Assembly (NCBI GenBank): GCA_041660065.1
Contig: JBAZXC010000002.1
Location: forward strand, 102,866 to 166,865
DNA from: Parcubacteria group bacterium
Lineage (GTDB): Bacteria > Patescibacteriota > Minisyncoccia > Moranbacterales > GCA-2747515
Length of the DNA: 64,000 nucleotides
Reading direction: 5' to 3'
Under the pieces are notes generated by a model. The model saw only the letters and a program-made list of their open reading frames with translations, was not told the origin of the DNA and searched no databases. Below, piece after piece: positions 3,001-17,081 of the stretch. A program made the position numbers and the translations under genes. The number at the start of each line of letters is the position of its first letter. Within the stretch, counting starts at the first letter, position 1.

Positions 3001-3110
3001 ATCGTTTCCGGTTTTGTGATCTCACCATGCGACCATCCGAGAATATTTTCCGGACTTGCGAGTCGGAGTCGGACGCTGTCGAAATCACTTACTTTTGTTG
3101 CATTTTCCAT
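1..3110 (-). CDS. rpoC: DNA-directed RNA polymerase subunit beta-prime (partial; C-terminus runs off the window start)
   Basis: Minus-strand translation from the ATG at 3108-3110 gives [85 protein letters not shown] (N-terminal Zn-finger). Downstream motifs include [14 protein letters not shown] (catalytic DxDGD). The frame is open to position 1 with no stop, which is why the ORF track does not list it. It sits immediately downstream of rpoB. Confidence 0.95.
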
Positions 3111-3146: not shown

Positions 3147-6100
3147 TTACTTCTCTTCTTTTTTTGCATCTTGTGCATCCTTCTCATCTGACTCGACTTT
3201 TTGTCCGATGAGTTCCACATCCAAACACAAACCCTTGAGTTCATTCACCAAAACATGGAATGACGCCGGAAGATTTGGACTCTTGATCTCTTCGCCCTTG
3301 ATGATTGCCTCATACGCCTTTGAACGTCCGAGTACATCATCAGATTTGATCGTCAACATTTCTTGCAATGTATGAGCGGCACCATAACCTTCCAATGCCC
3401 ATACCTCCATCTCTCCAAAACGCTGTCCACCAAACTGTGCTTTACCACCAAGCGGTTGTTGTGTGATCAATGAGTATGGTCCGATCGAGCGCATATGCAA
3501 CTTATCATCAACGAGATGATTCAACTTCATAATATACATCACACCGACAGTTGACTCATTATCAAACGGGCGTCCCGTCTTTCCATCGATCAAACCGATC
3601 TTTCCGCTTTCTGGAAGTCCCGCTGATTTAAGTTCTGCTTTGATATCTGCTTCAGATACACCGTCAAGCGCAGGTGTTGCTGCCGTGTAGCCATGCGCAC
3701 GTGCTGCCCATCCGAGATGCGTCTCCAAGATCTGACCGATATTCATACGACTTGCTACACCCAACGGATTCAAGATCACATCAACCGGTGTGCCGTCTGG
3801 CAAGTATGGCATATCCTCCACCGGTGCAATACGCGAGATCACACCCTTATTTCCATGACGCCCTGCGAGCTTGTCACCGACTGCGATTTTGCGCAATTGC
3901 GCAACAGAAATCTGAATTTGCTGGCTTACGCCTGTTGGCAAACGATCACCCTGATCTCGTGTAAATACTTTGATATCCACAACTTTTCCATGTTCACCAT
4001 GTGGTAAATACAGAGAAGAATCTTTTACATCACGGGATTTCTCACCAAAGATCGCACGAAGGAGACGTTCCTCTGCTGTGAGGTCACCCTCACCCTTTGG
4101 TGTGATCTTTCCGATCAAGATATCTCCCGATGACACTTCCGCTCCGATGCGCACGATGCCCGTCTCATCCAAGTTCTTCAGACGGTCTTCACCAATATTT
4201 GGGATATCACGTGTTACGATCTCAGGTCCGAGCTTTGTGTCACGCACATCCAATGAAAAATCTTCAATGTGGATCGAGCTATAACGGTCATCCTGCAATA
4301 CCTTTTCTGAAATGATGATCGCATCCTCAAAGTTAAATCCTTCCCATGGCACGAAAGCCACGAGCATATTTTGTCCGAGCGCAAGCTCACCATGATCAGT
4401 TGATGATCCGTCTGCGAGCAATTGCCCTTTCTTGATCACATCACCCTTGAGTACACGCGGCACCTGATTCATCGATGTAAACGCGTTGGACTTCATAAAT
4501 GTATGAAGCAAGTATTCTCTTTTATTTGTTTTTTTCTTCGCACCTGCCGGTGCTTCTTCTTCCACGACAATATGATTGCCATCCACAGAAATCACCTTTC
4601 CCGGGTTTTTTGCAATCACTGCCTGACCGGAATCCGCTGCCGCTTTGTCTTCGATACCTGTTCCCACAAGCGGTGCTTCCGGTTTGACACACGACACAGC
4701 CTGACGTTGCATGTTCGAGCCCATAAGTGCACGGTTTGCATCATCATGCTCCAAGAAAGGAATAAGTGCTGTCGCCACAGAAATACACTGCTTTGGTGAC
4801 ACGTCAATATATTCAACACTTGTCACACTTACCATATCCGGCTGACCGCTGACACGCGCTTCTACCATCTTTTCCACGATGTTGCGATGCTCATCAAGTA
4901 CTGTGCCACCATGTGCGATCGTCAATCGATCTTCTACAGTCGCATTGATATATTCGATTTTGTCCGTTACAAACGGCACGACATGGATCATGTCTTTTTT
5001 CTCTTTCGCGATCTTTTTTGCAAGAGTTTCATCGATCAATGTACCGATAGCACAATCACCGATTTTCTCCGTTAAAATACGACCGACAAGATCATCTGCA
5101 GTATTTGCGACTTCTTGCGCCACTTTCAAGTATGGTGTTTCGAGAAATCCATATTCATTGATCCGTGCATATGTCGCCAAATGTCCGACGAGTCCGATAT
5201 TCGGTCCTTCCGGTGTTTCTACAGGACAGATGCGTCCATAATGAGAATGATGCACATCACGCACTTCAAATCCCGCACGCTCACGCGTCAAACCACCGGG
5301 TCCAAGGGCACTTAAGCGACGCTTATGCTCCAACTCTGCAAGCGGATTTACCTGATCCATAAACTGCGACAACTGTGAGCTGGAAAAAAATTCTTTGATC
5401 GCAGCTGCAACCGGACGAGAATTGATGATCTGTCCCGGCACAACCGTATCCACATCACACGTACTCATGCGATCTTTGATATTGCGTGCCATACGCGCAA
5501 AACCGATACGCATTTTGTTTTGGATAAGTTCTCCCACACCACGCACGCGACGATTGCCCAAATGATCGATATCATCTGCCTGTGCTTGCGGATTATTGTT
5601 CATGCGAATGATCTCCTTGATAATGAGAACAAAGTCCTCCACATTTAAAATACGATTTTCTGGGTTATTTGCTCTATCAAGTTTCAATCGTTGGTTGAGA
5701 CGGTATCGTCCCACCGCACCAAAGTCATAACGATCAAAGTTAAAAAACATTGCATCAACCATTTGTTTTGCATTCTCTTCTGTTGCAAGGTCTCCCGGAC
5801 GTACGCGTTTATATACCTCCTTGTATCCCTCACCTTGCGATGTTGTAATATCTTTTGCAAGCGTTTCACCGATATGATCTACGTCGATCACTTCCACATC
5901 CTGTGCAAAAAGTGCACGAATCTGATCATTAGTACCATGCCCAAAAGCACGCAATAGCGCCGTCACCGGCAATTTGCGCTTACGATCGATCTTCACATAG
6001 ATCACACCATCACGATCTGTCTCAAGCTCCAACCATGCACCACGATTTGGAATGATTTTTGCACCAAAAAACTTACGGCCTTTGATGTATTCCATCGAAA

Positions 6101-6927: not shown

Positions 6928-8109
6928 TTATGCGCCACAATCTGCGGTTGTATTTGCGTTGGCTGCGGCAGCTGTGCCTGAACCGAATCCTGGTGCCGGT
7001 GCATCACTGGACATTTCTGTCTGACATGCTGCCGGTTGTGTATTGAATGCGGAGCAAATCGCTTTCATGAGACTTGCGCTATCACGACCGGATTGGATCA
7101 ATTCCCCATTGATCACAAGAGTCGGCGATCCTTGGACACCATATTTCTCATTATCCGCCTTTGAGATGTTGAACTGAGGAAACTGTCCACTCACCCATGA
7201 CGACTTATCATTGAACAATTCTGTAACTTTGAATGCTTTATCTGTTTGCGCCACGCACTGCGCCAAAAGCGTTTGATTGACCAATGCTGTCTGCATGCAT
7301 GCTTTTTCATCCTGTTTTTCCAAAAAGCATCCAAGATACGCATGAAATTTTTGCGGTTCTTTTTCCTGGATGCAATACTGACGCAATTCTTCCTTCACTT
7401 CTTTCTCACCATGCATTGCATAATCCACAAATTTGAATTTTGCATTGACAGTTGTGCCAAGAGCTTTCAACACCGGCAAAATGCCCTTCTCGATCTGCGT
7501 ACCATATGGGCAGTGACTCATCACAAAGATCTCAACTTCCGGTTTATCTGATTTTGTCTGCACTTCTGTAGTCTCAGTTGTTGTGGCATCCTCTTCCGCG
7601 CTCTTTTCTTCAAGTTGCTTTGTATCAACAAGCTGCGGAATAAACTTGGTCATATCTTTTGACATGTACGACGTCACTTCTTGACCCTCTACAGTAATGA
7701 TCATTTTATAGAGACCGCTTTCTTCTGTGATTTTACCGATCTCAACCTTTGTGCCTTCCGGAACCAGTTGACCGGTGATCATTTTCATCGCATTATCCCG
7801 AACTTCCTGCGCCACCTTTTCTTTTACAGGACGTTCTTCGCCGACGTTGTCACGTTTTTGCATTTGGAAATATGCAATAGCACCCACTGCCAGAACGACG
7901 ATCACAAGCCAAATAAAAATATTCTTTCCTCCTTGTATGCCACAGCACACATCACCGCATGTCTTTCCTTCGCATGAGCCTCCTTCGCATACACCATCCT
8001 TACATGTGCCACTCTCACACGTTCCTCCCTCGCATGAACCTTTTGCCTCCTCTTCCGGAGTTTTCTTTTCCTCTACCACTTCTTCTGTCTTTTTTTCCTC
8101 TGACATCAT
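6928..8109 (-). CDS. Membrane-anchored thioredoxin-fold (DsbA-like) protein with an N-terminal Cys-rich tail
   Basis: The N-terminus has CxGGxC/CxxGxC repeats (GSCEGGTCESGTCKDGVCEGGSCEGKTCGDVCCG). One TM helix follows (IFIWLVIVVLAVGAIAYF). The C-terminal domain has the SHCPYG CxxC motif typical of the thioredoxin/DsbA fold. Confidence 0.6.
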   Translation of the reverse strand: MMSEEKKTEEVVEEKKTPEEEAKGSCEGGTCESGTCKDGVCEGGSCEGKTCGDVCCGIQGGKNIFIWLVIVVLAVGAIAYFQMQKRDNVGEERPVKEKVAQEVRDNAMKMITGQLVPEGTKVEIGKITEESGLYKMIITVEGQEVTSYMSKDMTKFIPQLVDTKQLEEKSAEEDATTTETTEVQTKSDKPEVEIFVMSHCPYGTQIEKGILPVLKALGTTVNAKFKFVDYAMHGEKEVKEELRQYCIQEKEPQKFHAYLGCFLEKQDEKACMQTALVNQTLLAQCVAQTDKAFKVTELFNDKSSWVSGQFPQFNISKADNEKYGVQGSPTLVINGELIQSGRDSASLMKAICSAFNTQPAACQTEMSSDAPAPGFGSGTAAAANANTTADCGA

Positions 8110-10924: not shown

Positions 10925-12187
10925 TTATACTGTATGCAATTTTGTAATTTCTTTTTTGCAAAACAAAAACATGATCAATAAAATGATCGCAACGACCACC
11001 GGTAATATAAAAAAGTATTGAGGCTGATTGATAGTGAATAAAATACACCCAAAAACTACCATACGACCAACTACCGTCGGCACTTCACGCAAGATGATAA
11101 ATTCTTCTTCATTTTTATCTTTGACCGATTTGTAGATATAACTGAAATATGGCACAAGAAAAAATGTCATTGAGAACGCACCTACCAGCGTTAATACATA
11201 CGCCATGATTTGTCCGTGAGAGAAAATCCTACCAACAGACACAACAATGACACACAGTGCTGCAATGATAATAAGTTTATGCGGATCTTTATTTGCTTTC
11301 TTCCCTATAAAAAACAAAAATAGAATTCCACCAATTGACGACAAGCTCCCTACTATGCCAGGCACTGCTAATGACCCGATCATGATGTACACATAAATAC
11401 TCCAATACCAATGTGATTCTTCGATTACATTATCAAGTGACTCAAGAAAAAATAATTTCTTTCGTTTTTTTATTTTTGCAAAAGTCTCTTTCCAATGCAA
11501 TGATAATTTTGATTCATGACTTTTAATGCCGTGAAGTGGGATAAATGACAAGATGAGTCCCAAGATTGCAATGATAAATATCGGCCAAAACCCGACAAAA
11601 TAAACCATCACAACACTTATGAGCGGATTGAGTACTTGTAAAATTTTTGGTAAAGCAAAAAACGTTGCAAGATCGGTGCCCATTTTATCAAAATCTGTAT
11701 GTTTTACCAAAAGAATATTTAATGGCACCCAATAGATAAATGTTGCCATTCCGCCGACCATTGCCACAATGCCAAATGGCATATGCCAGTCTTGCATAAA
11801 ATACAAACTTACATAAAAAAGAATTTCCATCGGATAATAAAGTTGAAAAATACGCACCAATCCGATTTTTTGTATCAATGGTGAGATTACAAATAGAGTA
11901 AATAACAAACCAAATCCATGGAAGATTGCATAAAAAACAACGACATCTGTCAATGTATTGCCAATCGTCAATAAATACACCGGCACATAAATGCTCACAA
12001 AAGAAAGCGCAATTGATCGGATCGTGTGTGCAATATGGATGCGATAGATCTCTCGCTTGTCTTTTATGATTTTTTGGAAAATCAATTGTACTTCAAACAA
12101 ATTTTTTATCATTTCTAATTTTGAACTTCCAATATAATTTTCATTTATTTTCCATAAATTTTTTAAGCCCCTCAACTGTAATTTCAT
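10925..12187 (-). CDS. Polytopic membrane protein, possible MFS-like transporter
   Basis: About 12 predicted hydrophobic helices. The N-terminus overlaps the upstream gene by 47 nt, so the real start is probably the internal Met near 12112. Confidence 0.4.
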   Translation of the reverse strand: MKLQLRGLKNLWKINENYIGSSKLEMIKNLFEVQLIFQKIIKDKREIYRIHIAHTIRSIALSFVSIYVPVYLLTIGNTLTDVVVFYAIFHGFGLLFTLFVISPLIQKIGLVRIFQLYYPMEILFYVSLYFMQDWHMPFGIVAMVGGMATFIYWVPLNILLVKHTDFDKMGTDLATFFALPKILQVLNPLISVVMVYFVGFWPIFIIAILGLILSFIPLHGIKSHESKLSLHWKETFAKIKKRKKLFFLESLDNVIEESHWYWSIYVYIMIGSLAVPGIVGSLSSIGGILFLFFIGKKANKDPHKLIIIAALCVIVVSVGRIFSHGQIMAYVLTLVGAFSMTFFLVPYFSYIYKSVKDKNEEEFIILREVPTVVGRMVVFGCILFTINQPQYFFILPVVVAIILLIMFLFCKKEITKLHTV

Positions 12188-13142
12188 AACTTCTCACGAA
12201 AGAATCATCCACGTGCGCATAAAGTAATCCCTTCCCATTTTGTTGATCCATAAAATAACTGGCAAAGGTAATCGTTTTTGCTTGACTGTCCCTGATAAAA
12301 TAATTTGGAGAGATCCACTCAATTTTACCTTCTTCATAATTATAGATAAATAAACCTACAGAAAATTTTCCATATTTTACAAACGTCCCGTTTTTTCTAT
12401 CCACCTCTCTGCCATTCATAAACCCAAGACACTTCCCCTCTCCTACATCAATAAATTTTCTTGACATCAACGGACCTGGTGAAGCATGTCCACCAGCCCA
12501 TTCAATATTTTCTTTTTTAGGGTGAAAAACTGTTTTGCCAAATTTCCAATTTTTCCCCATGTCTTCCGCGATGACCGTTCTTATAGTCGAATACCAATAT
12601 CCTTTGCCATGATCACTCGATTCAACAAGATTATATCTAAATCCACGTTTATTCATCGGAGCAATCGACACTTCTTTTGCTCCACAGTTATTTTTTTCCA
12701 TCAAAACCGGTTGTGTCATTGTCAAATCACTCAGATCTGTCCCAAATGCATGCCCCAAGTGCACGACCGCATTTCCTGTTCGTTTATTAAATAAAGGGAT
12801 TGTAAAATAGACATGCAGTGTATTATTTGTCTCATCCGCCCAAATATCCGGATCTTCAAATCCGATAAAGTCTAGTCCTTTTTTATTGAGAGAGTTTATG
12901 ATTTCTTCTGTATTTTTCATGTACAGTTCACATGTGATCTCATAGATCCCTGCATCATTTTTTACTACTTTATACAAAGCACTTCTGTCAACATACCCTC
13001 GTTTTTCCACATCTCCCTCTCTGCTGACTACACATCTAATAATGCCTTCTTTCCAATCAAAATGTGAATTGAGAGTCAAAGCCATAATATGTTTAAACCT
13101 TCTATCAGATTTTATAGCTGTTTCTTTATTTTCTAAATACAT
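12141..13142 (-). CDS. Hypothetical protein, possible beta-propeller glycosidase-like (GH130/DUF377-like)
   Basis: FEDPDIW resembles the EDPR motif of GH130/GH43-type propellers. Weak similarity only. Confidence 0.3.
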   Translation of the reverse strand: MYLENKETAIKSDRRFKHIMALTLNSHFDWKEGIIRCVVSREGDVEKRGYVDRSALYKVVKNDAGIYEITCELYMKNTEEIINSLNKKGLDFIGFEDPDIWADETNNTLHVYFTIPLFNKRTGNAVVHLGHAFGTDLSDLTMTQPVLMEKNNCGAKEVSIAPMNKRGFRYNLVESSDHGKGYWYSTIRTVIAEDMGKNWKFGKTVFHPKKENIEWAGGHASPGPLMSRKFIDVGEGKCLGFMNGREVDRKNGTFVKYGKFSVGLFIYNYEEGKIEWISPNYFIRDSQAKTITFASYFMDQQNGKGLLYAHVDDSFVRSYEITVEGLKKFMENK

Positions 13143-13255: not shown

Positions 13256-14878
13256 TTATTGAATGGATGCCACCATCCAGCTGATCGCATTTGCGATCGC
13301 TTGTGCCGTGGCATGATTTGAATCTTCATGTACGGCATGTCCACTATGAATATGTTCTCTGCCAGGAATGGTATCGTGCGTCATTTTCAGTTGTACATAG
13401 ACATCACCAAGTGCTTCATCACCCTTTGTGACTTGCACCGGGCGCCAATATTCTTGCGAGATCGTATATTCTTGCAATTGTGGAAAAAATTCTTTTGCAA
13501 TGGCGACAACAGCATCAAATGCCGCACTCACAGGACCATTGCCGGTGCGCACGGCTGCTACTTTTTTACCGTGCAATGATGCGATGACGGATGCTGTTGG
13601 TATTGTACCCTTGCCACTCACAATTGTGGAACGATCGATCACAATGCTACATGGCACTTCCTTGATCACATCTGTTACAACTGCGACAACTTCTCGATCA
13701 CTCAAAGAAGTACCGCGCCGTCCTTCTGAGATACGCTTGATCTCTACCATGATCTCTGCAAGCTGCTCTTTTTTTACGACAAAACCAAGCTCTTTAAGTT
13801 TTGTCATAATGCCCTCCTTGCCGGAAAATTGTGTCACCACAGTCTTCACGCCGGTGTGTCCATATTTTTTTGGATCCCAACTATAATATGGGCTGACGGT
13901 TGTACCGTTTTGCTTTGCTTTTTCTTCAATGGCCTGATGCGTACCGGAACTGCAAATGCCATTTTGATCTCCCACCACAACCCAGTGTCGTGGCACAGGC
14001 ATGCCCAGACAGTTTGCGATCATGTGAACGATCTCCACAACAATTGCAGGATCGAAACGTATGTTATACCCACCAAAAATATCTTGGCGTGTATGCATGT
14101 TCATGATCACGGACTCAAATTTCGTCATACCGCTACGCTCACCCAGTCCATAAAATGTACCTTGCACTTCTGTGATACCATGTATAATTCCTTGCAAAGC
14201 ATTTGTCGTACTGTGATCACTATCATTGTGACAGTGACATGCAATACGCGCTTTATGAATGTTTGACACATGCGCAAATACATATGCGATGAAATCGCCA
14301 AACTCGTTGAGAATACGCAATCCGGTTGTGTCAGGCAAATTGACACTCGTTGCACCGGCAGTGATCACTGCTTCCACGATCTTGCAAATAAATTCTTTGC
14401 CCGCTCGCGCAGCATCTTCCGGCGAAAACTGCACATGGTGGAAACCAATACTTCTGGCATATCGCACCATATCAACTGCAGTGTCAATCACCCATTGTCG
14501 TTTTCCCTCCGGCGAATCACCATATTTCTCAGCATCGAATTGTGCGAGCATAAGCTCGTCACTTACCGGAATATAAATATGAACCATGTCACAACCGGCG
14601 ACTTTTACCGCATCAATATCTGCCTCCACAGCACGAGCCAGTCCTGAAAGAATAGGCTTATGATGTGTTTTTGTACCTCGCACAACGTCAACGATCTCTC
14701 GACATCGTTTTGGATTGCCTTTTGCACTGCCGGGAAAACCGATCTCGATGATGTCAATTCCGCCTTTCACCAACTTTCTCACATAGCGATCCTGGTCTGC
14801 AGGCGTGATCGCCCCACCGTCAACTTGCGCAGATTCACGTAGCGCCACATCATTCAACCAAATCTTCTTCTTTTCCAT
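13256..14878 (-). CDS. leuA: 2-isopropylmalate synthase / citramalate synthase family (HMGL-like DRE-TIM metallolyase)
   Basis: N-terminus is IWLNDVALRESAQ (compare LeuA IFDTTLRDGEQ). HCHNDSDHSTTNALQGI matches the LeuA HxH metal site, and a C-terminal LeuA-dimer-like region is present. The start at ATG 14878 (MEKKKIWLND) follows a GAGGAG SD; the track start at 14923 is a TTG extension. Confidence 0.8.
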   Translation of the reverse strand: MEKKKIWLNDVALRESAQVDGGAITPADQDRYVRKLVKGGIDIIEIGFPGSAKGNPKRCREIVDVVRGTKTHHKPILSGLARAVEADIDAVKVAGCDMVHIYIPVSDELMLAQFDAEKYGDSPEGKRQWVIDTAVDMVRYARSIGFHHVQFSPEDAARAGKEFICKIVEAVITAGATSVNLPDTTGLRILNEFGDFIAYVFAHVSNIHKARIACHCHNDSDHSTTNALQGIIHGITEVQGTFYGLGERSGMTKFESVIMNMHTRQDIFGGYNIRFDPAIVVEIVHMIANCLGMPVPRHWVVVGDQNGICSSGTHQAIEEKAKQNGTTVSPYYSWDPKKYGHTGVKTVVTQFSGKEGIMTKLKELGFVVKKEQLAEIMVEIKRISEGRRGTSLSDREVVAVVTDVIKEVPCSIVIDRSTIVSGKGTIPTASVIASLHGKKVAAVRTGNGPVSAAFDAVVAIAKEFFPQLQEYTISQEYWRPVQVTKGDEALGDVYVQLKMTHDTIPGREHIHSGHAVHEDSNHATAQAIANAISWMVASIQ

Positions 14879-14957
14879 CACTCTCTCCTCATCCTTTTTT
14901 GAATTTTTTGATCTTCTCTTCAACTGTTAATGAACCCATGAATTGACCCATGTAAAC

Positions 14958-14979
14958 AAAAAAACCTGACAGTGTCAGG
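14958..14979 (-). terminator. Attenuator / rho-independent terminator hairpin between the leucine-rich leader peptide and the leuA-like gene
   Basis: Minus strand reads cctgacactgtcagg followed by TTTTTTT (6-bp perfect stem plus a 7-nt T-run). Confidence 0.6.
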
Positions 14980-15016
14980 CAGTATCAATGTTTTGTCCTA
15001 TATTACTCGTAAAACA

Positions 15017-15088
15017 TTACCCAACACAAAAACCTTCCTCAACGAGGAGTAGCAGGGCTAGCAGGTTTTGTGCTGTATAGTGTTTCAT
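15017..15088 (-). CDS. Leucine-rich leader peptide (23 aa, MKHYTAQNLLALLLLVEEGFCVG) upstream of the leuA-like gene
   Basis: Six Leu codons fall within seven consecutive codons (CTG CTA GCC CTG CTA CTC CTC). The ATG lies 6 nt after a TACAAT -10 box. The terminator hairpin follows about 40 nt downstream. Confidence 0.5.
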   Translation of the reverse strand: MKHYTAQNLLALLLLVEEGFCVG

Positions 15089-15094
15089 GCCGTC

Positions 15095-15122
15095 ATTGTA
15101 ACAAAAGATGTTTTTTTGTCAA
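15095..15122 (-). promoter_or_regulatory. sigma70-like promoter (TTGACA, 16-nt spacer, TACAAT) driving the leader peptide and leuA-like gene
   Basis: Minus strand reads TTGACA aaaaaacatcttttgt TACAAT gacggc ATG. The -10 to ATG distance of 6 nt suggests a leaderless transcript. Confidence 0.5.
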
Positions 15123-15138
15123 ACAGCTAATAAAAAAT

Positions 15139-15687
15139 CTATGTGTTTTGTTGCTGCAAAAATTTCCTTAATTGTGCAATTGGTCTGATCTGGAGATATG
15201 TCTTTTCATAATCTTTTTCACTAAGTGACGCACGTGTCATTGTATACCCCGTGGGAATGAAAAAATGGTCCCAATCAAAACCGTTTTTCCCTGCCGGTTT
15301 TTTGGCAATTTCTCCCACTAATTTTTTTTCAAATATTTTTAACGTCTTGCCATCATAATATCCGATCGCACATCGCGCTGTTGCTTTGCGACTTTTGCCG
15401 TTGAGTAAATCACAAATATTGTGAAATGGCATTTGATCAACAAAAAAACGAATGAACGGTCCAGGCAATTTCCCCAATGCCTCAAATTCCAACGACACAT
15501 CCTCCACGATCACAGGTTTCTTGATTTTTTGGTATGCCTGTCGAACCTTGTGCTCGATGATTTCTTTCAATCGCAAAGATTGGATCTCATCGAGATCGAT
15601 CTTTTCGTGATCGATCGGATGACCCAAAAATTTTGCCAGATAATCCGCCTTGTTTTGATTGCCTGTTACAAATACAATATTTTTCAT
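15139..15687 (-). CDS. rdgB: Non-canonical purine NTP pyrophosphatase (RdgB/Ham1/ITPase family)
   Basis: N-terminal IVFVTGNQNK matches the Ham1 signature. Length 182 aa. Confidence 0.85.
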   Translation of the reverse strand: MKNIVFVTGNQNKADYLAKFLGHPIDHEKIDLDEIQSLRLKEIIEHKVRQAYQKIKKPVIVEDVSLEFEALGKLPGPFIRFFVDQMPFHNICDLLNGKSRKATARCAIGYYDGKTLKIFEKKLVGEIAKKPAGKNGFDWDHFFIPTGYTMTRASLSEKDYEKTYLQIRPIAQLRKFLQQQNT

Positions 15688-15775
15688 ATGAGTTCTAATT
15701 TAAAAATATTTCCTATATAACCATTTTAATAAAAATGTCATTTTTTCTTTTATATAAAACATTTATTGAAAGCAA

Positions 15776-15857
15776 ATCTATGTCATCCTGAACTTGTTTC
15801 AGGATCTCGCGCTTATGGTTTATATAGATCCTGAAACAAGTTCAGGATGACATAGAT
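15776..15857. repeat. 32-bp perfect inverted repeat (atctatgtcatcctgaacttgtttcaggatct) with an 18-nt spacer, in the rdgB/smpB divergent intergenic region
   Basis: Arm 1 (15776-15807) is the exact reverse complement of arm 2 (15826-15857). Each arm also contains a nested palindrome (cctgaa...ttcagg). Confidence 0.9.
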
Positions 15858-15981
15858 ATCGATGAGTTCATGCGTCATCATAACAAATACATGATCGCGA
15901 TGCAAAACACTAAATCATTGACGAACATCTTTTTATCATTATGATAGATATACTCACGTTTCGTGATATAATACCAACATT

Positions 15982-16428
15982 ATGGCAGTGATCGCACTCA
16001 ATAAGCAAGCAAAATTCGATTATGAACTCATTGACCACTATGAGGCGGGTTTGGCATTGTTCGGTCATGAGGTCAAATCGATCAAAACGGGACACATTTC
16101 ACTCAAAGGCGCTTTTGTCACAGTAAAAGGTAGTGAGCTTTATCTCACCAATGCGATGATCCCTCTCTATAAACATGCAGCAAATATCAAAGAGTATGAT
16201 CCAAATCGGTCTCGTAAGCTCCTCGTCAAAAAGTCGGAAATCCGCTCGCTGATCGGCAAAAAACAACAGGCTGGCTTGACATTGGTACCGATTCGTGTTT
16301 ATACTAAGGGAAAGCTGATCAAGCTTGATTTTGCGCTTGCAAAAGGCAAGGCAAAATATGACAAGCGTCAGACGATCAAAAAACGTGAAACTGACCGCAA
16401 TATCACACGCGCATTGCGCAGAGGTTAA
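15982..16428 (+). CDS. smpB: SsrA-binding protein
   Basis: 148 aa with SmpB motifs (NKQAKFDYELIDHYEAGLALFGHEVKSIK, LLVKKSEI). Confidence 0.95.
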   Translation: MAVIALNKQAKFDYELIDHYEAGLALFGHEVKSIKTGHISLKGAFVTVKGSELYLTNAMIPLYKHAANIKEYDPNRSRKLLVKKSEIRSLIGKKQQAGLTLVPIRVYTKGKLIKLDFALAKGKAKYDKRQTIKKRETDRNITRALRRG

Positions 16429-16498: not shown

Positions 16499-16920
16499 GG
16501 GGATGCTTTTAGCTTTCGACAGTTTGTCGTCTGCCGATATGCACGTCGGGCATGTATATTCACCCCGTAAAACTGGTATACACATTGATAAGTGCAAACT
16601 TCATCAACAAAGCAAAAGTAGCATTTGCTAACGCATTTGCTCCATCTTTTGCACCGTCTCTCGCGTAATAAACGCTTGAGCCATCACACAGTCGATATCT
16701 CATAGACTGATCGTGGTGTCATATTATGAGGTTCGTCACATTGGAGTATCATTGCTTCTTTATGACTAAATCTACAATGATAGATCATGGGATTTTTTGA
16801 TCACTTTATCGCCCGTGATCGAACATGTCGATTTGCATCGACACGAAAAGTGCTCTAAACGTGTAAGAAGTATTGTCGGATCAACAAATTTGGACGTGGG
16901 TGCAATTCCCACCATCTCCA
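16499..16920 (+). ncRNA. ssrA: tmRNA (transfer-messenger RNA, ssrA)
   Basis: Lies immediately downstream of smpB. The 5' end GGGGAUGCUUUUAGCUUUCGACAG resembles the canonical tmRNA 5' end. The 3' end has a T-arm-like GTGGG-tgcaatt-CCCAC, then CATCTCC, which pairs with the 5' GGGGAUG to form a 7-bp acceptor stem with a discriminator A; CCA is not encoded. An internal tag frame (gca aac ttc ... ccg tct ctc gcg taa taa) ends in LA plus a double stop. Confidence 0.72.
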
Positions 16921-17081
16921 CAAATTTAGTATATGAGACATGTAGACTTGTAGACCACTAGAAAAAAATCTACATATCTCATAACTTGAAGTACGATATG
17001 ACCTCATTTAAATATTTGGACACATTGTGCTAGTATATATATACTTTACAAACTTTTTACTTTTAACTTTACACTGAATTT

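Follow-up and report, generated by a model that had tools for sequence, protein, structure and literature searches.

How does a bacterium of the Parcubacteria group decide when to transcribe a gene for a 2-isopropylmalate-synthase-like protein of the LeuA family? This question is raised by a stretch of 64,000 nucleotides of contig JBAZXC010000002.1 (assembly GCA_041660065.1, positions 102,866 to 166,865), hereafter called the window, in which the element at positions 14958-15122 of the minus strand precedes such a gene. The most probable answer, held here with high confidence, is that this element is a ribosome-mediated leader-peptide transcription attenuator, which senses charged tRNA-Leu and thereby controls the LeuA-like gene. 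A preliminary description of the same DNA had already proposed attenuation of the leuL type, and the proposal is supported by an antiterminator that can be drawn, by a Leu-rich mini-open reading frame (mini-ORF) found in 22 of 27 related loci and by a covarying helix between the leader strands termed regions 2 and 3. Direct observation covers four matters: which parts the sequence contains, how far these are conserved, how the 2:3 helix covaries, and where the Leu run lies with respect to region 2.

Anatomy and alternative folds of the leader

When considered part by part, the leader contains every detail that had been listed for it on the minus strand, namely a promoter, a 6-nt gap, a 23-codon ORF, a hairpin followed by T7, and the Shine-Dalgarno (SD) sequence and ATG of the next gene. 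The promoter (TTGACA at 15122-15117, a 16-nt spacer and the extended -10 element TGtTACAAT at 15103-15095) combines 11 of 12 consensus matches with the extended -10 TG and obtains the top promoter score within 14000-16000. Between the -10 box and the leader ATG at 15088 lie only the six nucleotides GACGGC, and the ORF that opens there (15088-15017, 23 codons plus TAA) encodes the peptide MKHYTAQNLLALLLLVEEGFCVG. Its codons 9-15 read CTG CTA GCC CTG CTA CTC CTC, with Leu at six of the seven positions, and no other mini-ORF of 8-50 codons that starts with ATG, on either strand of the 64 kb, has at least six identical residues in seven. The terminator hairpin (GCCTGAC-ACT-GTCAGGT, 14980-14964) starts 36 nt past the leader stop codon and runs into T7 at 14964-14958; the hairpin (-8.7 kcal/mol) has a 7-bp stem with four G-C pairs and a 3-nt loop, and the U7 tract follows it. 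Farther downstream, the SD sequence GGATGAGGAGAGAG (14894-14881) precedes the ATG at 14878 of the LeuA-like gene (14878-13256, minus strand, 540 aa). The features are as follows:

15095-15122, minus strand: sigma-70-type promoter (TTGACA, 16-nt spacer, TGtTACAAT), predicted to start transcription at or adjoining the A of the ATG at 15088
15017-15088, minus strand: leader ORF encoding MKHYTAQNLLALLLLVEEGFCVG; it has 23 codons in each of the five window-clade leaders of full length, although their N-termini carry substitutions
15064-15076, minus strand: region 1, ACAGCACAAAACC, the anti-antiterminator strand, which pairs with region 2
15044-15064, minus strand: regulatory Leu codons 9-15; relatives keep the Leu run with other Leu codons (TTA, TTG, CTT)
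15028-15047, minus strand: small hairpin CCUC-GUU-GAGG followed by AGG and U5 within the leader ORF, scored as terminator-like
15018-15034, minus strand: region 2, GGUUUUUGUGUUGGGUA, which contributes its 3' part (15027-15018) to the antiterminator as the 5' strand
14988-15017, minus strand: inner hairpin AUGUUUU (15017-15011) : AAAACAU (14994-14988), which stacks under the antiterminator helix
14972-14981, minus strand: region 3, UGCCUGACAC, the 3' strand of the antiterminator, overlapping the entire 5' arm of the terminator
14958-14980, minus strand: intrinsic terminator GCCUGAC-ACU-GUCAGGU plus U7
14927-14935, minus strand: conserved motif GTTCATTAA between the terminator and the SD sequence
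13256-14894, minus strand: SD sequence (14894-14881) and LeuA-family gene (ATG 14878, stop 13256) with HMGL-like, HCS_D2 and LeuA_dimer domains

The Leu codons of the leader are distinctive as well. In the 43 long ORFs of the window, Leu is written TTG (34%), CTT (23%), CTC (19%), TTA (10.5%), CTG (9.9%) and CTA (4.1%); the leader uses CTG, CTA and CTC twice each and leaves the two commonest codons unused. The earlier remark that its CTA and CTC codons look rare therefore holds, in that the leader avoids the two commonest Leu codons of the window and CTA makes up no more than 4.1% there.

From a structural point of view, the whole leader folds more stably than its shuffled versions (-39.1 vs -29.7 kcal/mol, z = -2.6), and two incompatible arrangements can be distinguished within it. 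In the minimum free energy (MFE) structure of the free leader, the terminator is accompanied by a long hairpin formed by region 1 (ACAGCACAAAACC) and region 2 (GGUUUUUGUGUUG). The antiterminator pairs GUGUUGGGUA (15027-15018) with UGCCUGACAC (14981-14972) over 10 bp, stacked on AUGUUUU:AAAACAU, and is the MFE structure (-13.6 kcal/mol) when only the nascent RNA downstream of a ribosome on the last Leu codon is folded and the 3' arm of the terminator is still absent. The mutually exclusive pairing that the preliminary description had suggested looking for can thus be drawn (15027-15018 with 14981-14972), and it covaries across the family. Both duplexes are stronger in the window than in shuffled sequences: -22.7 vs -12.5 kcal/mol for 1:2 (p = 0.004) and -12.8 vs -8.3 kcal/mol for 2:3 (p = 0.024).

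Conservation, covariation and sister leaders

The comparison comprised 27 related loci (13 from genomes, 9 from metagenomes and 5 from an exact-protein look-up, labelled below with L and a number), of which 5 duplicate another locus. With a mini-ORF defined by an ATG and at least four Leu per seven codons (five or six in nearly all), 22 of the 27 loci carry a Leu-rich mini-ORF followed by a terminator ahead of the orthologous gene, which makes 23 of 28 sequences with the window included. The search of orthologous upstream regions that had been advised earlier thus finds the mini-ORF conserved: it occurs in 19 of the first 22 loci and also in L023, L026 and L027, and the 22 loci represent 18 non-redundant related leaders and a second unit in L001. 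L007 carries a weaker variant (NLLNLQSSLSLLAS), L005 has no Leu mini-ORF upstream of the orthologous gene, and in L025 the contig end cuts the leader, of which only the 3' half is visible. Terminators are present in every leader examined, with the stems of L004 and L006, missed by the automatic finder, set by hand. The genes flanking the orthologous loci differ, and since this neighbourhood is not conserved, the mini-ORF evidently travels with the LeuA-like gene.

The encoded peptides share the motif (Q/K)NLLxLLLL and diverge outside the Leu run (FCVG, RRVAVF, GGRF, SVVS). Across lineages the run is spelled with all six Leu codons, and its maintenance through synonymous codons indicates that the amino acids are what is conserved, an argument for translation of the ORF. 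In the window clade (the window, L001, L002, L003 and L023), the leader ORF always has 23 codons. The window and L023 are nucleotide-identical over codons 5-23 and differ in the stop codon (TAA in the window, TAG in L023); such an identical core in spite of enzymes only 66% identical points to overlapping coding and RNA-structure constraints. The closest relative, L001, whose enzyme is 84% identical to that of the window, has two tandem units of leader ORF and terminator (L001:2662-2890) ahead of a LeuA-like gene starting at 3001; the core of the first unit is identical to that of the window, and the second encodes MKHHFVQKLHKWLPLLLSVCFCVE and switches in the folding model described below.

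The pairings persist although the sequences of regions 1-4 are wholly different across lineages. For instance, relatives form their 2:3 helices with CGGGUGGC/GCCACCC, GGAAGG/CCUUUC, GUGGUUAGU/ACUAGCCAC and GUGCUGGG/CCCGGCAU. When compared with shuffles, the 2:3 duplex reaches p <= 0.078 in all 22 leaders and p < 0.05 in 20 of them. Independently of any alignment, cognate regions pair better than non-cognate ones, both for 2:3 (mean -16.8 vs -10.7 kcal/mol, p = 6e-8) and for 1:2 (-15.0 vs -10.4 kcal/mol, p = 3e-5). Covariation was assessed on an unguided MAFFT alignment of 19 leaders, with the 10-pair antiterminator helix and 500 shuffles. The antiterminator cells are paired in 79% of cases vs 68.5% in shuffles (0 of 500 as high), all ten pairs show changes on both sides, and the covariation score is 0.37, compared with 0.23 in shuffles (again 0 of 500 as high) and with at most 0.116 for slid registers. 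Covariation of the terminator was not counted, MAFFT having left its arms in differing registers; each terminator is individually obvious. It is nevertheless important to stress that shuffle-based p-values overstate independence, because the leaders are phylogenetically related, and the wholly different helix sequences between clades are a stronger argument than the p-values.

Another recurrent property is the abrupt start of the leader. Transcription usually begins about 7 nt past the -10 box, so that the A of the leader ATG would be position +1. The distance from the -10 box to the ATG is exactly 6 nt in eight leaders (the window, L001, L002, L003, L010, L023, L026 and L027) and 7-12 nt in six further leaders with strong promoters, and no SD-like motif precedes the mini-ORF in any of the 22 leaders, the LeuA-like gene itself having a strong one. 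Judging from this spacing, the leader peptide would be translated from a leaderless 5' AUG. The leaderless leader mRNA suggested in the preliminary description is compatible with these counts, and its apparent singularity does not hold, as there is precedent in Actinobacteria: LeuL1 of Streptomyces lividans (MRFGLLLLSCRGEGL) is a leaderless Leu leader peptide preceding leuA, and Corynebacterium diphtheriae has a Leu leader preceding leuA and a leaderless ilvB leader (PMC8079986, PMC5784534).

The same architecture, in which the promoter abuts the ATG, the ORF contains an amino-acid run, and the terminator is accompanied by a strand complementary to one of its arms, recurs in the relatives' loci for other amino acids. 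Ile-rich leaders such as MASLQYNISIISIIIIIRYCPS (L011:574-642) and MNLFQSAKIISIIEIIIIDDHFCAL (L008:1012-1089) precede citramalate synthase (TIGR00977, 714 bits vs a cut-off of 450). The aromatic-rich leader MDKIMQKTFFYFYFWFFPRKSVFCYFS of L011, with similar peptides in L009, L010, L012, L013 and L015, belongs to a set that precedes 3-deoxy-D-arabino-heptulosonate 7-phosphate (DAHP) synthase (L011, L012) or prephenate dehydratase/dehydrogenase (L009); in L011, 6 nt separate the -10 box from the ATG of this leader, and a 12-bp antiterminator can be drawn. That the run matches the downstream pathway in these sister leaders supports the view that the run is the sensed signal. The Phe/Tyr/Trp-rich leader ORFs with terminators are located at:

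L011:5005-5088, L010:4730-4822, L012:4746-4898 and L009:5692-5784
L015:5149-5247, L013:4771-4842, L005:6302-6391 and L008:4663-4764

Further Ile-rich leader ORFs with terminators occur at L009:1416-1517, L012:1429-1530 and L018:6-56, and the gene that follows in L009 and L012 encodes 115-139 aa. The interval L008:5479-5559 contains a mini-ORF in which six Asn codons follow one another (MKRYCAQMNNNNNNWLKTGFFSCVKK); a terminator but no long ORF comes after it, a tRNA-Pro(GGG) gene lying at 6003-6073; the interval L008:4600-6800 thus holds two leader-like units and no gene. A candidate of another kind, upstream of the DAHP synthase gene of L018 (3650-3880), combined the T-box-like string GGTGGTACCGCG with a strong terminator and was set aside, as it did not reach the Rfam T-box gathering score.

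Two smaller elements of the leader also reappear in relatives. The small hairpin within the ORF is retained with altered sequence in L002 (loop AUC) and L003 (CUCUU/AAGAG plus U5), and the CCUC/GAGG hairpin with its U5 tract is possibly an RNA polymerase pause signal that a translating ribosome would melt. Beyond the terminator, GTT[CA]NTT[ATG]A is found within 70 nt in 10 of 22 leaders, compared with an expectation of 0.013 per 70 nt; in the form GTTC(T/G/A)TTAA it lies 6-30 nt past the terminator in the window, the second unit of L001, L002, L003, L010, L017, L018, L023, L026 and L027. This motif could pair with the SD region (UUCUUU:AAAGGA), or could be part of a weak internal promoter (TTAACA-16-AAAAAT, 14930-14903).

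Proposed mechanism and rival explanations

In the proposed mechanism, transcription would start at or adjoining the A of the leader ATG, and 70S ribosomes would initiate on this 5' AUG. When Leu-tRNA is plentiful, the ribosome would pass codons 9-15, reach the stop codon and cover region 2, upon which the terminator at 14980-14958 would form and transcription would end before the LeuA-like gene. When Leu-tRNA is scarce, the ribosome would instead stall on the CTG/CTA/CTC run, region 1 would be covered or separated, and the free region 2 would pair with the emerging 5' arm of the terminator; this pairing is the antiterminator, and the polymerase would read through into the LeuA-like gene. Were the leader not translated at all, regions 1 and 2 would pair and the terminator would form, so that the default state would be off.

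This scheme was modelled with a ribosome whose cover extends up to 12 nt beyond the first A-site nucleotide in the 3' direction; only the RNA downstream of it was folded, with ribosome-spanning pairs excluded, since allowing them wrongly preserved the 1:2 pairing while the ribosome occupied the last Leu codon. Of 21 leaders, 19 show a probability of the terminator, P(terminator), of about 0 as long as the A site is on the codons of the Leu run, and of 0.77-1.0 once the stop codon is reached. In 18 of these 19, the value of 0.5 is first passed between three codons before and four codons after the last Leu; the remaining leader, L004, switches six codons before it. Untranslated RNA also gives the terminator, via 1:2 pairing, in about half of the leaders. 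L023, which has the same ORF core as the window and a shorter spacer, passes from a P(terminator) of 0.01 to 0.99.

Several points nevertheless weigh against the attenuator reading, in addition to the relatedness of the leaders stressed above. The most direct concerns the window copy itself, which together with the identical first unit of L001 makes the exception in the model: no ribosome state brings P(terminator) below 0.92, even though the geometry is right, with region 2 starting 10 nt past the last Leu codon. This is explained by an alternative partner of region 2 and by the greater stability of the terminator fold, which at equilibrium reaches -16.0 kcal/mol vs -13.6 kcal/mol for the antiterminator fold. 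The gap of 2.4 kcal/mol is within the error of the energy model, and since the terminator is favoured at equilibrium, any switch in this copy would have to be kinetic. According to the model, the window copy may work kinetically, with the antiterminator forming first, or may be a weak or a tight, low-read-through variant. Moreover, the transcription start, the translation of the ORF, the stalling, the pause at the internal hairpin and U5 tract and the response to leucine in vivo are predictions from the sequence. As for the enzyme, the LeuA-like protein scores below every curated NCBIfam cut-off for LeuA (NF002086, 306.5 vs 532 bits; TIGR00973, 290.9 vs 598.7 bits) and carries LRESAQ (14834-14851, codons 10-15) where canonical DRE-TIM synthases carry LRDGEQ. 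Finally, tblastn with the LeuCD, LeuB, CimA and DAHP synthase proteins of the relatives detected no leuB, leuCD, cimA or DAHP synthase gene in the 64-kb window.

The behaviour of the window copy gives rise to the rival explanation that it is a decayed or constitutively terminating relic, which insulates or silences a lone LeuA-like gene working outside leucine synthesis, in a family that otherwise consists of real attenuators. The equilibrium model, which never opens the window terminator, speaks for it, as do the lack of leuB or leuCD in the 64 kb and the unrelated nature of the downstream genes, encoding a 333-aa protein and a major facilitator superfamily (MFS) transporter. However, a relic would hardly be expected to retain a consensus promoter, the ATG, the frame, six Leu codons, a 10-bp antiterminator and a strong SD sequence, nor an intact enzyme gene whose product is 84% identical to its nearest relative; the window copy shares an identical ORF core with L023, which switches in the model, and an energy gap within the model error says little where the decision is kinetic. 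With every part intact, this explanation is considered quite improbable.

Two further rivals deny the leader peptide its regulatory role altogether. The element might be a translation-independent RNA switch (T-box-like, another riboswitch or a protein-binding attenuator) in which the ORF is incidental, and the strong structure of the leader (z = -2.6) is compatible with this, as is the RNA-level constraint evident from the nucleotide-identical ORF core in the window clade, though the enzymes are 66% identical. Yet no Rfam family, T-box and Leu leaders included, matches at E values up to 10 in the window or at the gathering score in 20 loci, and a T-box would need more than the roughly 125 nt of this leader. 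An incidental ORF also fits poorly with a Leu run conserved as amino acids through synonymous changes, an ATG fixed 6 nt from the -10 box, a preserved frame and length, and an amino-acid run matching the downstream pathway in three leader types, all of which makes such a switch very improbable. The mini-ORF might, alternatively, be a gene in its own right for a small hydrophobic protein (a membrane or type-I-toxin-like peptide), with its own promoter and terminator and unrelated to downstream regulation. It is indeed Leu-rich and hydrophobic, has its own strong promoter and terminator, and the window terminator is predicted to form in all states. On the other hand, the mini-ORF always stands directly upstream of the LeuA-like gene while the other neighbours vary, the peptide outside the Leu run is not conserved between clades whereas the pairing with the terminator arm is, and the Ile and aromatic sister leaders precede their cognate pathway genes. 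Besides, the LeuA-like gene has no separate strong promoter, the only match (9 of 12 positions, 14930-14903) being weak, and an independent peptide gene is regarded as very improbable. The tRNA-Leu-sensing attenuator is thus retained as the preferred reading.

The enzyme, known systems and what the leader means

What the switch ultimately controls here is less certain than the switch itself, because of the low LeuA scores, the LRESAQ motif and the absence of leuB, leuCD and cimA from the 64 kb. The protein contains the Pfam domains HMGL-like (PF00682), HCS_D2 (PF22617) and LeuA_dimer (PF08502) and falls within a clade that comprises about 50 cluster representatives with at least 43% identity, nearly all labelled Patescibacteria, the next matches being canonical LeuA proteins at about 34%. 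In this clade the metal-ligand Asp is replaced by Glu, and this Glu (E15) is at least 90% conserved among 27 clade members. Four of the five best matches in the PDB are 2-isopropylmalate synthases (3eeg, 3rmj, 3ewb and 4ov4), and the top match, 6e1j, was deposited as a 2-isopropylmalate synthase and is presumably a plant methylthioalkylmalate synthase; all five outscore homocitrate and citramalate synthases. In relatives the context is more telling, since the Leu leader of L006 and L016 heads an operon of leuA-like, fused leuCD and leuB genes, and in L004 the leuA-like gene adjoins leuB and leuCD. Furthermore, the Ile-controlled citramalate synthase is a separate paralogue, 23% identical to the LeuA-like protein, which supports the assignment of the LeuA-like clade to the leucine branch. 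The earlier claim that the downstream enzyme is a genuine leucine-pathway LeuA is therefore backed by the relatives and not proven for this genome.

Upstream in the window lies a gene for a Ham1-type NTP pyrophosphatase, and downstream follow the genes for the 333-aa protein (12141-13142, minus strand), for which no family was found even at E values up to 1, the MFS transporter (10925-12187, minus strand), whose ORF overlaps the 333-aa gene by 47 nt, and prolyl-tRNA synthetase (ProRS). No terminator was detected after the LeuA-like gene, and the 333-aa and MFS genes may be co-transcribed with it and hence be under leucine control; both are absent in L002 and in the other non-duplicate relatives compared. 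On the plus strand, smpB (15982-16428) is directly followed by the tmRNA gene (16499-16923; Rfam RF00023, 118 bits), and this SmpB, tmRNA and Ham1 neighbourhood is also found in L001, L002 and L023. In L023, the relative with a 66%-identical enzyme, the Leu leader and LeuA-like gene lie among proB-like (AA_kinase plus PUA), proA-like (Aldedh) and proC-like (P5CR) genes with ProRS beside them (L023:1205-6744), which indicates that this lineage retains some amino-acid biosynthesis. A scan of the window for mini-ORFs with at least five of seven identical or six of eight aromatic residues followed by a terminator picked out only the Leu leader and, within a gene, a single false positive (6928-7068).

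Among known systems, the closest in logic is leuL of Escherichia coli and Salmonella (RF00512), with its short ORF containing a Leu run, its 1:2, 2:3 and 3:4 pairings, a terminator before leuA and the same sensing principle; the Leu run of the E. coli leader includes the rare codon CUA. However, no homology of sequence or structure is apparent. Neither RF00512 nor the Lactococcus model RF01743 nor the T-box matched at E values up to 10 in 14700-15300, and none reached the gathering score in the window or in 20 related loci; the best permissive matches in the leader region, MicC (E = 0.63) and STnc310 (E = 0.8), are at chance level, and at gathering scores the window yields only the tmRNA. In addition, the E. 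coli leader is SD-led with four Leu codons and precedes leuABCD, whereas that of the window has no SD sequence and six Leu codons and precedes a single LeuA-like gene. The leu/phe leader of Lactococcus lactis (RF01743) is likewise a case of leader-peptide attenuation of a leu operon, and in a low-GC bacterium; it is SD-led, and its covariance model does not match the window leader. The ilv-leu T-box of Bacillus also senses the charging of tRNA-Leu, by which it decides whether a terminator or an antiterminator forms ahead of leucine genes, but there the uncharged tRNA is sensed directly by RNA-RNA contacts without translation, and no T-box model matches here.

The leuA leaders of Actinobacteria are reportedly joined by sibling leaders for other amino acids, one of them aromatic, to judge by the title of Neshat et al. 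2014, a reference of PMC8079986. Those of S. lividans (LeuL1, MRFGLLLLSCRGEGL), C. diphtheriae (MNRANLLLLRRGGSQA) and C. glutamicum resemble the window leader in that a Leu-run peptide directly precedes leuA on a leaderless transcript (PMC8079986, PMC5784534). They differ in that they reportedly lack a typical Rho-independent terminator (PMC8079986), while the window leader ends in a canonical hairpin with its U7 tract; the phylum is another one, the GC content is not the same, and neither the peptides nor the RNAs can be aligned. A literature search that combined Candidate Phyla Radiation (CPR), Patescibacteria or Parcubacteria with leader peptides, attenuation, leaderless mRNAs and isopropylmalate synthase returned nothing relevant, with incomplete coverage. 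This is weak evidence that such a leader may be unreported in Patescibacteria, the mechanism itself being textbook knowledge and leaderless Leu leaders being already documented in Actinobacteria.

The element thus teaches no new principle. Patescibacteria are usually described as lacking such pathways and as having little regulation, and the leaders provide direct sequence evidence, with covariation, that members of this group regulate amino-acid biosynthetic genes by sensing tRNA charging. They also allow annotation by regulation: the Leu run labels a LeuA-like clade that fails all curated cut-offs, as the Ile run labels citramalate synthase. Since the leaders are missing from Rfam, a covariance model built from them would improve the annotation of CPR genomes, and the window leader is a small system in which leaderless translation, and the coupling of transcription to translation, could be tested for Patescibacteria. 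On balance, though with less assurance than for the Leu leader alone, Patescibacteria seem to carry a whole set of leaderless attenuators, in which Leu runs go with LeuA-like genes, Ile runs with citramalate synthase, and Phe/Tyr/Trp runs with DAHP synthase and prephenate enzymes, and to which an Asn-run leader may also belong. If so, these reduced and largely uncultured organisms would use leaderless initiation, tight transcription-translation coupling and the sensing of tRNA charging for the few amino-acid steps that they retain, and a stand-alone, leucine-controlled LeuA-like enzyme with the LRESAQ motif may serve a role other than complete leucine synthesis.

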